From assembly GCA_018897415.1 (NCBI GenBank), contig JAHIKR010000064.1:1-35129 (forward strand): a stretch of 35,129 bases of DNA. The letters are read 5' to 3'. This document shows, in pieces, positions 3,973-34,974 of this stretch; position 1 is the stretch's first letter, and the number at the start of each line of letters is the position of its first letter. Below the pieces are notes generated by a model. It saw only the letters and a program-made list of their open reading frames with translations, did not search any database and was not told where the DNA came from. Source of the DNA: Pseudomonadota bacterium (GTDB lineage Bacteria; Desulfobacterota; Desulfobacteria; Desulfobacterales; ETH-SRB1). Both the position numbers and the translations under genes were made by a program.

Positions 3973-4025
3973 GAAGGAGAGATTGGCTATTCGACACTTT
4001 ATGCAGGATTTAGTTTAGATAGATT

Positions 4026-4192
4026 GAGACCTTTGCAAAACGCCCCCTTTTGCCCAATTAGCGCTATAAAGCTTCACTAAAGTGCCTGTGTCAGACTCAA
4101 ATTTTAAGCCTCGAAATACTCAATGTATTCCTACAGTTAAAATTTTCGCCTTCCTTGAACTTGAACAAAATTGAGCATTTTTCAAAGGTCTC
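4026..4192 (+). mobile_element. MITE-like element A (167 bp): terminal inverted repeats GAGACCTTTG(C/A)AAAA and a 5-bp target-site duplication AGATT
   Basis: The ends gagacctttgcaaaa / ttttcaaaggtctc match at 14 of 15 positions as an inverted repeat. The flanking pentamers 4021-4025 and 4193-4197 are both AGATT. A near-identical copy lies inverted at 34796-34962. Confidence 0.85.
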
Positions 4193-4381
4193 AGATTATT
4201 ATACTTGACATTGGTTAAAATATATGTTCAATCTATGAACGTTTAGAAACTGAACACTTGAAGATGATTATTAATTCCCATAAATATCTTTACGTTAAGA
4301 CTTGTCGATTTCATGTAACCCACCAAGCGGAGCTATGCTCTATGTCTAAAAGTTAGCTCTAATTTCTCCCCATTAAATCTT

Positions 4382-4529
4382 GATGAATTCGTAAAAAGGC
4401 AAATTCATCATGTTAAGTGTTAAGTTTTAGGTGTTAAGTTCTGGAATTATATTGTTATAACAAATGCTTAAATCTTAAAACCTAAAACTTAAAACGTTTG
4501 TAAAAATCTGATTTTCAGACTTTTTACGA
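4382..4529. repeat. Long imperfect palindrome / structured repeat upstream of the regulator gene
   Basis: Outer arms tcgtaaaaag (4389-4398) / ctttttacga (4520-4529). Inner arms taagttttaggt / acctaaaactta. Local hairpins gatgaatt...aattcatc (4382-4409) and gtaaaaatctga-ttt-tcagactttttac (about 4499-4527). Confidence 0.6.
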
Positions 4530-8146: not shown

Positions 8147-8173
8147 CAGCTATGCTCCAAGCTCTTGCCTCTT

Positions 8174-8203
8174 CACTTAAAACTTAATCACTTAAAACTA
8201 AAA
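8174..8203 (+). repeat. Two units of the 15-bp motif CACTTAAAACTTAAT
   Basis: cacttaaaacttaat cacttaaaactaaaa. The same unit is tandemly repeated at 9000-9059, and the surrounding sequence (8161-8218) is also homologous to 8986-9075. Confidence 0.8.
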
Positions 8204-8296
8204 ACTATGCTTTCTTCCGGTAGGCTGAGGGTCAAAAAATGGAAATTAGTCTGAAAGCGTGTTGCAAGTCATATTTGCAAATGATAAACGGGATTT

Positions 8297-8903: not shown

Positions 8904-8999
8904 GTACTGGTTCCATGATCTTTCACGGCTTACCGCAGATTTCTGTGCGGAAGCATCTTTTTGCTTCCAAGGCTGGATGTCTTTGGCTCTCTTCCTCTT

Positions 9000-9059
9000 G
9001 CCTTAAAACTTAATCACTTAAAACTTAATCACTTAAAACTTAATCACTTAAAACTTAAC
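9000..9059 (+). repeat. Tandem repeat, 4 x 15 bp (CACTTAAAACTTAAT), ending 3 nt before the aldo/keto reductase ATG
   Basis: gccttaaaacttaat / cacttaaaacttaat / cacttaaaacttaat / cacttaaaacttaac, read directly from the sequence. Confidence 0.9.
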
Positions 9060-9062
9060 ACT

Positions 9063-9956
9063 ATGTTCTTTCCTCATCTTGTCTTAGGCACAGCGCAACT
9101 TGGTCTTCCCTATGGCTTAGCCAACAAGGTAGGGCAACCTGACCAGGCTGTTGCAATTACTATAATCCGTGAAGCTTGGAAAAATGGGATTAGGGAATTT
9201 GATACAGCTCAGGCATATGGGGACAGCGAAAAGGTTTTGGGGAAGGCTCTTTACGAATTGGGCATATCAAGCGAAGCAAAAATCATAACTAAATTCCATC
9301 CGAATTTGGATCATCTGAACGCTTCAGATATGTCGAGAGCCTTGGATGAATCTCTCGAAAGGCTTAGGGTCCGAAGTCTTTATGGTATTATGCTGCACAG
9401 GGAGGAAATGCTTTCCTTATGGAATAAAGGTTTAGCGAAAATTCTTCATGCCTTTATTTTGTCCGGTAGAGTTGAAAAAATAGGTATCTCCGTCTATTCA
9501 CCAGATAAAGCTATACAGGCTTTAAACACCGAAGGTATCAGTATGGTTCAACTTCCGACCAATATCGTGGATAGAAGATTTGAAAATACAGGCGTATTTA
9601 AGCTATCAGATGAAAAGAAAAAACAGATTTACATCAGAAGCGTTTTTCTTCAGGGGCTGCTACTAATGAATCCGGAAGAAATTTCGGATAAAATGTCATT
9701 TGTCAGGCCAATAATTAAAGAAATACAAACGATTTCAAATAATATTGGATTGTCACAGCAGGAAATAGCGCTGGGTTACGTGAAATCAGAGATGCCAAAC
9801 GCTCATGTGGTTTTTGGCGCAGAATCTTCTGAGCAGGTAAAGAGCAATATAGCCTGTTGGAGAAAAAACATTCAACAGAATCTGGTTGATATGATTAAAC
9901 GTAAATTTGATGATATTGACGAAGTTATTTTGAATCCTAATTTATGGCCAAAATGA
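9063..9956 (+). CDS. Aldo/keto reductase
   Basis: From the ATG at 9063 the protein reads MFFPHLVLGTAQLGLPYG...REFDTAQAYGDSEKVLGKAL, a typical AKR N-terminus. The ORF-track start at 8961 (TTG) would translate the 15-bp tandem repeat and is unlikely. Confidence 0.8.
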   Translation: MFFPHLVLGTAQLGLPYGLANKVGQPDQAVAITIIREAWKNGIREFDTAQAYGDSEKVLGKALYELGISSEAKIITKFHPNLDHLNASDMSRALDESLERLRVRSLYGIMLHREEMLSLWNKGLAKILHAFILSGRVEKIGISVYSPDKAIQALNTEGISMVQLPTNIVDRRFENTGVFKLSDEKKKQIYIRSVFLQGLLLMNPEEISDKMSFVRPIIKEIQTISNNIGLSQQEIALGYVKSEMPNAHVVFGAESSEQVKSNIACWRKNIQQNLVDMIKRKFDDIDEVILNPNLWPK

Positions 9957-22839: not shown

Positions 22840-24324
22840 GTGGCAACTAAAGAACAGCAGATAAAAAACAGTTTTATCTATCTATTGCCCATCATAATTA
22901 GTAATCTACTCCCTTTTATTACATTGCCGATATTTACCAGAATCCTTACCAGGGAAGATTACGGGGTTTTGGCGTTAGCTCAGGTATATGCAATTTTTGT
23001 GACCGGTTTGGCAAATTTCGGAATGACCGTGTCTTACGACCGAAACTATTTTCAATATCGAGATAATCGCGTAGAAACGGCGAAATTATTATATTCCACT
23101 CTCCTCTTTGTAATGTTGAATTTTCTTTTTCTCGCTGGTTTGACTTATTTATTCAAGGGAACTCTCTCAAAGCTCATTATAGGATCTGCTGAACATGCGA
23201 ACATTATGTTCTGGGCGTTTTGTGCACAGTTTTTCAGTAGCGTGAGCTATTACTACTTGGCTTATTTTAAAAACTCCGAATCAGCAAAAAAGTTTGTTGT
23301 TTATACAATCACAGGTAGTCTTATTGCCATTATCATTTCTCTTTATCTGGTAGTTTATCTGCGTATCGGTGTTATTGGAATTGTATATGCGCAGTTGTGC
23401 TCTGGAACCTTAGTTTTTGCTATATTAACTTATAAATTTACAAATATTTTTTCCATTACATTTAGCAAACCGATATTTGTTGAGTCGCTGAAAATAAGTT
23501 ATCCCTTAACACCCAGGATATTTTTGGGTGTTATAGGCTCACAATTTGATAAATACATGATCGGTTTGTTGGCCTCAGTCGGGGGGGTCGGAATATATAG
23601 TATTGGTCAGAAAGTAGCATATGTTACATTTAGTTATATGACGGCGTTGGAAAACGTCTATGCGCCGCAGGTATATAAAAAAATGTTTGATCTTGGGGAT
23701 AAGGGCGGTGAAGCAGTGGGACCGTACCTTACTCCGTTTTTTTATATATCAATTTTGGTTGCGCTGATGATTTCCTTATTTTCTCAAGAGGTTATTACAA
23801 TTTTGACTCCAAGCTCGTATCATGAAGCCATAGATATAGTTACAGTTTTATCTATGCTATATGGGTCGTATTTTTTCGGAAAACAGCCTCAGCTTATCTT
23901 TGCAAAGAAAACATGGATGACCTCTGCTCTTACTCTGGTAAATATTACTCTCAACATTGCGATAAATATCCCGTTCATTATAAAATGGGGAGCCATTGGC
24001 GCTGCCTGGGCTACGCTTACCGCAGGAGTGATCTCCTGTTCGATTTCCTTTGCTATTTCGCAGCACTACTACCGAATCAGGTGGGAGTATGGAAATCTGG
24101 CATACATCTTCTTGACCTTTTTTGGATTTTCAATCCTTATTATATTATTGAGGGACATGAATGCCGCATACTCGGTGCTTTTGGGTGTGAAGATAATTGC
24201 TGTTATGATTTATGTCTTGATCGGTGTAAAAATAAGAGTGATTACTATGAAAAACTGGATGCTCGTGAAGGATATGCTTTTCAACTTAAAGACACGTTCG
24301 CTATTGGGAAATTCTCAATCTTGA
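22840..24324 (+). CDS. wzx: Wzx-type oligosaccharide flippase (MOP superfamily polysaccharide biosynthesis protein)
   Basis: 494 aa with about 12-14 hydrophobic helices and a Wzx-like N-terminus (SFIYLLPIIISNLLPFITLPIFTRILTREDYG). GTG start. Confidence 0.75.
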   Translation: MATKEQQIKNSFIYLLPIIISNLLPFITLPIFTRILTREDYGVLALAQVYAIFVTGLANFGMTVSYDRNYFQYRDNRVETAKLLYSTLLFVMLNFLFLAGLTYLFKGTLSKLIIGSAEHANIMFWAFCAQFFSSVSYYYLAYFKNSESAKKFVVYTITGSLIAIIISLYLVVYLRIGVIGIVYAQLCSGTLVFAILTYKFTNIFSITFSKPIFVESLKISYPLTPRIFLGVIGSQFDKYMIGLLASVGGVGIYSIGQKVAYVTFSYMTALENVYAPQVYKKMFDLGDKGGEAVGPYLTPFFYISILVALMISLFSQEVITILTPSSYHEAIDIVTVLSMLYGSYFFGKQPQLIFAKKTWMTSALTLVNITLNIAINIPFIIKWGAIGAAWATLTAGVISCSISFAISQHYYRIRWEYGNLAYIFLTFFGFSILIILLRDMNAAYSVLLGVKIIAVMIYVLIGVKIRVITMKNWMLVKDMLFNLKTRSLLGNSQS

Positions 24325-24355
24325 GCTAATGGGATTGCTGATGAGTTCTGTTGTG
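24285..24355 (+). repeat. Direct repeat copy 1 (wzx 3' end plus the decayed start of the downstream gene)
   Basis: About 90% identical by eye to 26102-26175. The exact core cgctattgggaaattctcaatcttgag is at 24299-24325 and 26119-26145. Confidence 0.85.
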
Positions 24356-24417
24356 GAAGTAAAACGATTCTTTGAAGCCAGAATGGAGTAACATCGTAAG
24401 ACAGAAAGGGATTTATT

Positions 24418-26101: not shown

Positions 26102-26175
26102 CCTAAAGATACGCTCCTCGCTATTGGGAAATTCTCAATCTTGAGTTAATGAGATCGCTGATGAGTTCTATTGTG
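26102..26175 (+). repeat. Direct repeat copy 2 (pseudo wzx 3' end plus the true start of ORF 26149)
   Basis: Reads ...LKIRSSLLGNSQS* followed by ATGAGATCGCTGATGAGTTCT. It mirrors LKTRSLLGNSQS* plus atgggattgctgatgagttct at 24285-24355. Confidence 0.85.
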
Positions 26176-28023
26176 ATTATACATAGTCTATCACGTGCAC
26201 GGCATTTCTTGAGCACTCAGCCGCGTCACTTGCTTGGCAATGGACGTTATTTGGCCTTTCCGACTTCTACTACCCTAATGGTTATCAAGTTTTTGGAAGA
26301 TCTTGGTATAAAGGCGTTTCTTCCATGCCCTATTTCTAAAGAACGGCGCGACAAATTTCTGCGTGATTATATTGATATAATGGATGTACTGGCAGATCAA
26401 AACGGTCATGAGCTGCAATGGTGGGCTACCGATCTGGCTTCAAAAAATCGTTTTACTTCTCCTCTATTTGGGCTTCTAGATGCGCTTGTACGTTGCCATG
26501 ATGCTATAGACAAGGTATCTGGACAAAGACAATTGTTAGTTCTTATCCATCCGCCCTGGCCGGTAGTGCTTTCCCTGGAAAACTCAGCCAAGATTTGTGA
26601 GTGGGACTTGAAGATTCTATCATCGCCTATTTCAAAGTACCTTGCTCGATATCGAGGCAAGGCTAAAACATGGATGAGTGTTCTTATGGGGGGTTTTTCT
26701 TCTCTCTTTCGCATTTGGGAAACAAGACGTTGCTTCGGACTAATGCATAGGAAGAAAGAAAAAAATAAGCCGATTTATTTAATAAAGAGTTTTGTATATC
26801 CTGGCTCATTTTCCAAAGATGGTCTCTTTCATGACCCTTTTTTTGGAAAACTGTCGGAATTCCTCAAAAGGTCGATAGGGGATAAGGTTGACATTCTTAC
26901 TGTAGCTGTTGGCGCAGAAAATAGGAATGAATGTTATCAACGGATGAAGTCTCTTAAAGGACAACAGGTTGTTCCGTTGGAAGCGTTTTTGAGGTATTCT
27001 GATGTCCTTAAGGCGCTTCTGCATATATGGTGGAGTTGTATTACCAAACCGTTTCGGATGGTGACCAAATTGTCTTTTCTTGGAAACGAAATTTCAGGCC
27101 TGGTAAAAGAGTGCCTTTCATCAGGTGGTTGGAGGATTAAGCTTTATCAATATTTACATTTGTTTGCTGCTGAGCAAATTGTCCGGACTTATCGGCTTTA
27201 CGCCTGTGCGTTAACATTTGAAGGGAACCCTTGGGAGCGTATGTTTGTCGAAGGACTGAGACGTCATTTTCCGGAAACGCCTATTTTTGGTTACCAGCAT
27301 TCAGTTGTCCCTCAAGCTGCTGCCGGGGTTTTTATCAGCCCGAGAGAAAAAAAATACTCCCCCTTGCCATCCATTGTATTAACCACGGGTGATGTCCCAG
27401 CCGGCATTATGCGGCATTACGGAATGTTATCCGACGATAGTATTCGGCCATCGTGCGCTTTACGTTATGACTATCTTTATAATATAAATTATAGGGAGAG
27501 TGGGGAGCAGAGTAGATTTCTTGTGCTTGTGGCCTTAGAAGGTGTTCTGGAGGTGCTTCCTCTGCTTGAATATGTGTTTGATCAGGCTCCAAAATGCTCA
27601 GATGCCATTTTCCGCATTCGCGCACATCCGGTAATGCCTTTGCCGGAAATTCTAAGTAAACTAGGCAGGAGGATAGACCCGGAGGGGAATATTGAGACTT
27701 CCTCAGGTGGGACGGTGGCCAGTGATGTAGAGAAGAGTTCTGCAATTCTCTACTGGGGGACAACCGTGGCATTAGAAGCTTTAATGATGGGGAAGCCTCT
27801 AATACACTTTGATCGGGGTGATTTGCTCAGCTATGACCCCTTGTTCGAATTTAACGATTTCAAGTGGACCGTAGGAAAAAACAAGGATCTTCACACTATT
27901 CTGGAAGAAATCCGAAACCTGCCTGATGAAAAGCATGCTGTTTTGAGTGAGATAGGAAGAAACTATATTAGTTCGTATTTTAATAAAGTTAATGAAAAAT
28001 CCATAAGCAAATTCCTTCCTTAA
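26149..28023 (+). CDS. Large orphan protein with a GT-B-like C-terminal half (candidate Kdo/NulO transferase)
   Basis: 624 aa. The pattern TFEGNPWE ... GYQHSV ... FRIRAHPV ... ILYWGTTVALEALMMGKPLIHFD recalls HP-motif sialyl/Kdo-type or capsule-synthesis GT-B enzymes. By eye the layout parallels ORF 20839. Confidence 0.55.
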   Translation: MRSLMSSIVIIHSLSRARHFLSTQPRHLLGNGRYLAFPTSTTLMVIKFLEDLGIKAFLPCPISKERRDKFLRDYIDIMDVLADQNGHELQWWATDLASKNRFTSPLFGLLDALVRCHDAIDKVSGQRQLLVLIHPPWPVVLSLENSAKICEWDLKILSSPISKYLARYRGKAKTWMSVLMGGFSSLFRIWETRRCFGLMHRKKEKNKPIYLIKSFVYPGSFSKDGLFHDPFFGKLSEFLKRSIGDKVDILTVAVGAENRNECYQRMKSLKGQQVVPLEAFLRYSDVLKALLHIWWSCITKPFRMVTKLSFLGNEISGLVKECLSSGGWRIKLYQYLHLFAAEQIVRTYRLYACALTFEGNPWERMFVEGLRRHFPETPIFGYQHSVVPQAAAGVFISPREKKYSPLPSIVLTTGDVPAGIMRHYGMLSDDSIRPSCALRYDYLYNINYRESGEQSRFLVLVALEGVLEVLPLLEYVFDQAPKCSDAIFRIRAHPVMPLPEILSKLGRRIDPEGNIETSSGGTVASDVEKSSAILYWGTTVALEALMMGKPLIHFDRGDLLSYDPLFEFNDFKWTVGKNKDLHTILEEIRNLPDEKHAVLSEIGRNYISSYFNKVNEKSISKFLP

Positions 28024-33261: not shown

Positions 33262-33461
33262 GAGACCTTTGAAAAACGCTTCCTTTATGTCATTCCCGCG
33301 AAGCTTGTCCTCGACCCGATCGGGGAGCGGGAATCTATAACTGATTGAGAATGCTTGTCCTCGACCTGATCGGGGACTGGATTCCCGTTTTCACGGGAAT
33401 GACGATCTTGTCCTCGACCTGATCGGGGATTAGACTATTTCTGGCAAAATTCAAAGGTCTC
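33262..33461 (+). mobile_element. MITE-like element C (200 bp): same terminal repeats as elements A and B, different interior, TSD AAAGT
   Basis: The ends gagacctttgaa / ttcaaaggtctc form a perfect 12-bp inverted repeat. The flanking pentamers 33257-33261 and 33462-33466 are both AAAGT. The interior holds 3 copies of cttgtcctcgacc(c/t)gatcgggga (33303, 33353, 33406) and attcccg...cgggaat hairpins. Confidence 0.8.
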
Positions 33462-33503
33462 AAAGTATATGACATAGTGAGTAAAACCATTACGGATATT
33501 GAG

Positions 33504-34724: not shown

Positions 34725-34795
34725 AGCCAAAGCATTTCTCTTTTCAGGTCACTAACGAAATCCACTGCTATGGCCTTCAGCATATAACAGTGATA

Positions 34796-34962
34796 GAGAC
34801 CTTTGAAAAATGTTCAATTTTGTTCAAGTTCAAGGAAGGCGAAAATTTTAAATGCAGGAATACATTGAGTATTTCGAGGCTTAAAATTTGAGTCTGACAC
34901 AGGCACTTTAGTGAAGCTTTATAGCGCTAATTGGGCAAAAGGGGGCGTTTTGCAAAGGTCTC
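34796..34962 (-). mobile_element. MITE-like element B (167 bp), an inverted copy of element A, TSD TGATA
   Basis: Identical to the reverse complement of 4026-4192 at 164 of 167 positions by manual alignment. The flanking pentamers 34791-34795 and 34963-34967 are both TGATA. Confidence 0.85.
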
Positions 34963-34974
34963 TGATAATGTATC

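Follow-up and report, generated by a model that had tools for sequence, protein, structure and literature searches.

Recently mobile MITEs with IS5-family-type ends and 5-bp target-site duplications in a Desulfobacterales polysaccharide cluster

Introduction

Correia elements (NEMIS) and other hairpin MITEs fold back over their whole length and lie between genes, near coding sequence, where effects at the RNA level are possible; for Correia elements, effects on RNA processing and on promoters are documented. The Neisseria ATR MITE is a non-coding, multi-copy element of 181 bp with a 13-bp perfect inverted repeat, it is almost exclusively intergenic, and both ATR and Correia MITEs have been reported to affect the expression of neighbouring genes (PMC5383966). 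A published end sequence is available for ISNme1, an IS5-family element of N. meningitidis with the TIR GAGACCTTTGCAAAA/TTTTGCAAAGGTCTC, and near-identical ends are carried by ISPg1, ISPg4 and ISPg9 and by the P. gingivalis MITEs BrickBuilt and MITEPgRS (PMC4596501, Table 2). On the few intact copies of these P. gingivalis MITEs, flanking duplications vary between 2, 4 and 5 nt (PMC4596501).

Here we describe three short elements with ends of this type in the window, by which we mean the whole stretch of 35,129 nucleotides that was analysed (GCA_018897415.1, contig JAHIKR010000064.1). The DNA comes from an uncultured Desulfobacterales-type MAG with a G+C content of 39%. The elements are real, recently mobile, non-autonomous MITEs of an ordinary kind. 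What is novel about them is confined to their sequence family, the termini and the 5-bp footprint being already known from an IS5-family clade and its MITEs; the literature searched contained no description of the family and no MITE described for Desulfobacter*.

Results and Discussion

Three elements in a polysaccharide biosynthesis cluster

The genes of the region form a cluster for polysaccharide biosynthesis and encode Polysacc_synt_2 dehydratases, glycosyltransferases, radical SAM enzymes and a flippase. Homologues carry the names Deltaproteobacteria or Desulfobacteraceae, and identical proteins are found in GCA_022013515.1, GCA_018895975.1, GCA_018898135.1 and JGI 3300013392. The elements and their flanking duplications are the following.

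4021-4025, no strand: left target-site duplication of element A, AGATT (from the sequence and the single AGATT in contig L242)
4026-4192, plus strand: MITE copy A, 167 bp, with TIRs at 4026-4040 and 4178-4192
4193-4197, no strand: right target-site duplication of element A, AGATT (from the sequence and contig L242)
33257-33261, no strand: left target-site duplication of element C, AAAGT (from the sequence)
33262-33461, plus strand: element C, 200 bp, with the family termini and an unrelated interior
33462-33466, no strand: right target-site duplication of element C, AAAGT (from the sequence)
34791-34795, no strand: left target-site duplication of element B, TGATA (from the sequence)
34796-34962, minus strand: MITE copy B, 167 bp, reverse complement of A
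34963-34967, no strand: right target-site duplication of element B, TGATA (from the sequence)

Element B is the reverse complement of element A, and the two are 98% identical over 167 nt. Element A is made up of a 142-bp family core and a 25-nt internal insert, AGCGCTATAAAGCTTCACTAAAGTG, at about 4060-4084; in this 167-bp form, which A and B have in common, the insert sits after core position 34. The family HMM recognises element A with E=7e-42, and its RNA fold has an energy of -32.9 kcal/mol (z=-2.9). Five occurrences of the 15-mer GAGACCTTTGMAAAA were counted in the window, where chance predicts 0.27, and none of 100 shuffles reached this count. A sequence-only reading of this DNA had given all three elements a common start and a common end sequence. 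All of its coordinates are correct. Five of the six ends carry the 15-mer, and the sixth, the right end of element C, has kept only GAGACCTTTGAA. The ends measure 15 nt on A and B and 12 nt on C.

The same reading had counted the three as insertions of one family. Three TIR elements are indeed present, but C has only the ends of A and B: about 25 nt are in common on the left and 12 nt on the right, and the match of the family HMM to C is limited to positions 1-38 (E=4e-4). Element C cannot be counted as a further copy of A/B; it is a divergent relative with common ends only. Its unrelated interior is filled by small nested repeats, with CTTGTCCTCGACCYGATCGGGGA present three times (33304-33331, 33354-33381 and 33407-33434) and two small hairpins at 33289-33334 and 33378-33403, and the RNA fold of the whole element reaches -85.1 kcal/mol (z=-6.6). 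The 23-nt repeat of this interior was absent from all other loci compared. Within the interior, at 33289-33434, the hairpin pair is bounded by GTCATTCC...GGAATGAC, and a similar pair with the same boundaries lies in contig L242, between 3562 and 4001 in the intergenic region upstream of an HTH gene; the hairpin pair therefore belongs to a separate small repeat family. A search of the window with the family HMM revealed no further copies or fragments of the family.

As had been noted from the sequence, the three elements occupy intergenic positions near stop codons. Element A lies 48 nt past the stop of a 630-aa Polysacc_synt_2 gene and element C 12 nt past the stop of a GT2 gene. Element B sits between convergent genes, 66 nt past the stop of a GT4 gene, and the convergent ORF has its stop codon 7 nt away. 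The GT4 protein flanking B is on record in one contig only.

Insertion and target-site duplication

The insertion of element A is proven by an exact empty site in contig L242, a syntenic contig of a close relative. A conserved HTH regulator gene lies downstream of A; L242 encodes an orthologue that is 94% identical and has the gene order of the window, and the flanks of site A are about 97% identical. At the site itself, L242 carries a single AGATT and no element (...TTTAGTTTAGAT-AGATT-ATTATCCTTGACATT...); the 172 bp that are absent correspond to the element plus one pentamer. The search for such a site had been named in the sequence-only reading as the check on its own claim of independent transposition, and the result bears that claim out, as do 5-bp duplications at dozens of unrelated loci elsewhere. 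The alignment at site A also shows that the empty site is no assembly artefact and that the flanking pentamers are not part of a longer pre-existing repeat, and the three different perfect 5-bp duplications first read at the three sites of the window (AGATT at A, TGATA at B, AAAGT at C) are all present.

Because A and B are 98% identical yet have different duplications, their transposition must have been recent. Their near-identity, taken together with the polymorphism of site A, further indicates that a source of transposase acted recently in this lineage.

Other repeats lie in the same DNA. Intergenic arrays of a 15-nt unit, TTAAAACTTAATCAC, are present at 4340-4520, 8173-8209 and 8999-9065, with an inverted version at 4417-4495, and in L242 the array-bearing stretch between MITE A and the HTH gene has unrelated sequence in its place. 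A 125-aa PDDEXK_3 (GxxExxY-type) gene at 1550-1927, with its surroundings at 1489-2060, is bracketed both by 38-nt inverted repeats (1489-1526 and 1935-1972, 87% complementary) and by 31-nt direct repeats (1529-1559 and 2030-2060, 97% identical). At this position L242 has AbiEii and 23S_rRNA_IVP genes instead, and the locus looks like a small inserted gene cassette. Finally, pyruvate-kinase-barrel and APS-kinase genes that lie between the flippase gene and a 624-aa ORF without Pfam match are bracketed, at 24298-24382 and 26118-26459, by direct repeats of 58 nt (93% identical) and inverted repeats of 27 nt (96% complementary); these repeats may mark a cassette boundary inside the polysaccharide cluster.

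A 142-bp family across Desulfobacterales

One genome for each species was scanned with a degenerate 25-nt pattern of the element end, which revealed at least 115 loci of the family. The 80 matches listed come from at least 54 different species-level assemblies, and among these matches the assemblies are nearly all named Desulfobacterales, Desulfobacteraceae, Deltaproteobacteria or Thermodesulfobacteriota. Element sizes range from 142 to 310 bp, with 142 bp the usual size of complete elements (33 of 69 among the matches listed). Of the 65 complete copies that lie outside duplicate contigs, again among the matches listed, 32 have the same pentamer on both sides and 15 have pentamers with one mismatch, and the pentamers have no evident consensus. 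The family is also mostly intergenic, with 53 of 64 copies between genes and a median distance of 35 nt to a gene's 3' end among the matches listed. A set of 36 copies of 142 bp, taken from different species, shows 91% mean column identity and 87% mean pairwise identity, and the first 10 and last 10 columns of its alignment are invariant. The elements are thus found inserted, with a 5-bp duplication, at many unrelated loci in many species. They have no coding capacity, and the earlier statement that no transposase is encoded stands, as the elements contain neither a transposase ORF nor a tblastn match. In the plasmid collection, blastn found no match to element A.

Longer copies consist of the 142-bp core and recurrent nested GC-rich hairpin modules. 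Such modules, 17-75 nt in size, occur in loci L031, L035, L053, L070, L096, L101, L119 and others, one example being GCCTGCCCCGTAGGTCCGGAAGATCGTACGGGG. In different genomes, one module type sits at two different places in the core (about 36-39 and 82). It may therefore be a mobile palindromic element itself, smaller still, that leaves no obvious duplication when it inserts.

Ends and footprint of an IS5-family clade

The family TIR, GAGACCTTTG(C/A)AAAA, is identical over 15 nt to the published TIR of ISNme1 and over 12 nt to the ends of all ISs of the clade that we recovered. A scan of viral contigs yielded a 1340-bp IS with these ends (L203), whose transposase matches NF033581 transpos_IS5_4 with E=4e-68, and two non-coding elements of 181 bp that share these ends and have the 5-bp duplications GGATT and TGGAT (L185), in agreement with what has been published on the Neisseria ATR MITE. 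When metagenome contigs were scanned with a pattern combining the TIR with two conserved transposase motifs, E..FG and D.GY, the matches listed included 120 full-length ISs with these ends, 1.2-1.34 kb in size, and their lengths clustered at 1217-1219 bp and at about 1325-1338 bp. The names of protein matches confirmed that the 1217-1219-bp ISs are of the Neisseria IS1106 type. An exact 5-bp duplication flanks 23 of 55 unique insertions with both ends intact, and duplications of 3, 4, 6, 7 or 8 bp flank none. ISs that had been chosen solely for the similarity of their proteins likewise have the ends GAGACCTTTGCA or GAGAGCTTTGCA and are flanked by 5-bp duplications (GTCTC, GTCGA and AACAG). The ends of our elements are identical to those of IS5-family elements that make 5-bp duplications, and since end sequence and duplication length both match, both defining footprints are those of the ISNme1/IS1106-ISPg1 clade.

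In the Neisseria-type ISs of 1217-1219 bp (metagenome loci L249-L368) the duplications often read AGGCC, GGCCT or AGCCT, which suggests a preferred target. This preference is a feature of the Neisseria-type ISs and not of the duplications of the Desulfobacterales MITEs.

The best explanation, and in our judgement a very probable one, is that the elements are non-autonomous and are moved in trans by an IS5-family DDE transposase. Short and non-coding, they carry only the TIRs that a transposase needs. A transposase of the clade to which Neisseria IS1106/ISNme1 and Porphyromonas ISPg1 belong (transpos_IS5_4), supplied in trans from a full-length IS elsewhere in the cell, would bind the 12-15-bp ends; the element would be excised or copied and then inserted at a 5-bp staggered cut, the repair of which would leave the 5-bp duplication.

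Hairpin structure

As had been predicted from the terminal repeats, the consensus of 142 nt adopts the fold of a single long hairpin (-38.1 kcal/mol, z=-4.7). In the 36-copy alignment 98.3% of cells pair, and double compensatory changes are seen in 11 of 38 pairs, compared to 4.8 +/- 1.4 in shuffles (none of 500 reached 11) and 0-3 in slid controls. Examples are pair 69-76, which is CG in 27 copies and UA in 9, and pair 55-90, which is UA in 29 and CG in 5. The excess of compensatory change over shuffles indicates that the fold-back has been maintained and not merely inherited. This maintenance may stem from template switching between the arms of the DNA palindrome, from the spread of a small number of subfamilies or from a need for the fold-back in mobility.

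A maintained hairpin raises the alternative that the elements are, mainly or additionally, a functional structured nucleic acid, with selection on structure and not selfish spread alone. Candidates would be a hairpin in 3'-UTR RNA that serves as terminator, stabiliser or RNase target, or a DNA hairpin used for the element's own mobility. The compensatory changes in 11 of 38 pairs speak for this account, together with the 91% column identity across species, the placement a median 35 nt from gene 3' ends and the effects on neighbouring-gene expression reported for Neisseria ATR and Correia MITEs (PMC5383966). However, template switching in a DNA palindrome or few-subfamily spread would also yield compensatory change, and copies tolerate large nested insertions. 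Where a gene has its 3' end towards the element, 21 copies are oriented opposite to that gene and 14 in the same way, which is no bias, and G-U and A-C counts of 6 and 12, apart from one conserved T:G position, show no clear strand preference. Neither a stem with U-tract typical of a terminator nor a promoter signal was found above shuffles in or at the elements, and the window has no Rfam match at gathering score. We consider this alternative unlikely.

Three more specific roles were rejected: a terminator or promoter, for want of a signature above shuffles; a strand-specific RNA function, given the lack of orientation bias and of a clear G-U/A-C asymmetry; and membership of a known RNA family, given the lack of an Rfam match. 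The proposal in the sequence-only reading that the elements may act as terminators is consequently unsupported by U-tract signature or orientation, and a role as transcript stabilisers is speculation.

A further conjecture, which we regard as doubtful, takes the whole-length hairpin to be under selection while the family moves across the order without a resident IS in most genomes. The fold-back, as a single strand or cruciform, would then be the substrate of transposition, or else the element would have been co-opted as an intergenic regulatory module, and the nested GC-rich hairpins would form a second, smaller mobile layer.

The mobilising transposase

Transposition in trans by an IS5-family enzyme, the reading that we prefer, brings up the autonomous partner that the sequence-only reading had postulated. 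Full-length ISs with the same ends and 5-bp duplications were recovered, as described above, but none in Desulfobacterales: a search for autonomous ISs with these ends found none, among the matches listed, in 789 kb of Desulfobacterales DNA; MAGs are incomplete and assemble IS copies poorly. The end pair expected of such a partner is GAGACCTTTG...CAAAGGTCTC. At the 115 loci listed, relaxed TIR pairs 500-3500 bp apart enclose only helicase, glycosyltransferase and similar ORFs, and unpaired ends that diverge from the core run into ordinary genes. Searches of the 789 kb by tblastn with one and then six transposases of the clade gave no match. The 120 metagenome ISs listed are of Neisseria type or of Bacteroidota/environmental types, and none has MITE-like subterminal sequence, while a composite pattern with an extended TIR had no matches on viral contigs. 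Named matches in two protein searches (a six-transposase profile and P0127) were only from Neisseria or Bacteroidota, the four top protein matches that were inspected have Bacteroidota-like contexts, and tblastn of the transposase against plasmids was saturated by enterobacterial IS5/ISKpn26. The resemblance of the MITE to IS ends extends over no more than about 15-18 nt, and the family is therefore not an obvious deletion derivative of any sampled IS; at most about 17 of 30 subterminal positions match, and blastn of the 142-bp core against the IS loci gave no matches.

Several IS families other than IS5 are described as making 5-bp duplications. If one of these supplied the enzyme (candidates are Tn3-family, ISAba11/IS701-like, IS1202-group, IS1634 and IS1380 transposases), the match to IS5-family ends would be coincidental, and the failure to find an IS5-family partner in the 789 kb of Desulfobacterales DNA would be accounted for. 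We hold this to be quite improbable. Over 15 nt the end agrees fully with a published IS5-family TIR, and its first 12 nt recur, across phyla and always with 5-bp duplications, on every IS of the clade examined. Moreover, the ends described for Tn3 (GGGG), IS1380 (CC) and IS1202 (TGT) do not match GAGACC. We infer that, in Desulfobacterales, the elements are mobilised by an IS5-family transposase.

That the copies are instead dispersed repeats left by segmental duplication or recombination, with pentamers that arose by chance or belong to a longer repeat, can be dismissed almost completely: no supporting point was found for it, the exact empty site with a single pentamer in L242 led us to reject it, the three window sites have three different pentamers, and among the matches listed 32 of 65 unrelated sites, with flanks that are unrelated beyond the duplications, have a perfect 5-bp duplication, for which chance alone would give a probability of about 1/1024 at each site.

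Assembly breaks and significance

Contigs of the same organism from other assemblies stop at these elements. Two of them, L003 and L004, end 12-22 nt past copy A, and contig JAKLQD010000251.1 of GCA_022013515.1 ends inside copy B, at window position about 34904. Since independent assemblies break in or just after MITE copies, the repeat limits the contiguity of these MAGs, which is the usual behaviour of a multi-copy repeat. Besides breaking assemblies, the repeat could be mistaken for a regulatory motif or a small RNA. For uncultured sulfate-reducer lineages it also provides a ready marker of recent changes in the genome, as seen in the 98% identity of A and B and the polymorphism of site A. 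The insertions lie inside a polysaccharide biosynthesis cluster, and such elements may contribute to the reshuffling of clusters of this kind.

For the specialist, interest lies in the breadth of the family across an order, in the maintained hairpin and in the nested mini-hairpins; the current understanding of MITEs is unchanged by these elements. One 12-15-bp end and one 5-bp footprint are common to IS5-family elements and MITEs in Neisseria, Bacteroidota and Desulfobacterales, which points to a recognition of ends by the transposase that may be conserved across phyla.

Comparison with known systems

The ISs of the ISNme1/IS1106 and ISPg1 (IS1126) clade (NF033581) have the same terminal 12-15 nt and 5-bp duplication as the present elements. 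They are autonomous, 1.2-1.34 kb in size, and encode a DDE transposase of 335-363 aa, whereas the present elements are 142-200 bp and have no ORF. Correia elements resemble our family as whole-length hairpins, but their termini and duplication differ and the sequences are unrelated.

Among non-coding elements, Neisseria ATR has a TIR beginning with GAGACCTTTGCAA and 5-bp duplications, as in the two L185 copies. It differs from our family in being AT-rich and 181 bp long, compared to a core of 142 bp, and in its host, since the matching IS (IS1106/ISNme1 type, 1217-1219 bp) is abundant in Neisseria while no partner was found for the present family. The interior of ATR has no significant similarity to the 142-bp core, no better than shuffles (z <= 2). 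With the TIR alone in common, membership of the ATR family was rejected. BrickBuilt and MITEPgRS/MITE464 of P. gingivalis have the TIRs GAGACCTTTGCA / GAGACTGTTGCA, are matched to the IS5-family elements ISPg1, ISPg4 and ISPg9, and are non-coding with nested internal repeats (PMC4596501). Element C likewise has internal repeats. Interiors and host phylum differ, however, and the 5-bp duplication that is consistent in the present family is variable in the P. gingivalis MITEs.

Judged by ends and footprint, Neisseria ATR and P. gingivalis BrickBuilt/MITEPgRS are the closest known relatives. As their interior is unrelated to that of ATR, the present elements form a separate sequence family, which leaves the earlier description of a new MITE family valid for the sequence but not for the ends and footprint, known already from ISNme1/IS1106, ISPg1, ATR and BrickBuilt/MITEPgRS. 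On the features compared, the elements would class as bacterial MITEs that depend on an IS5-family transposase.
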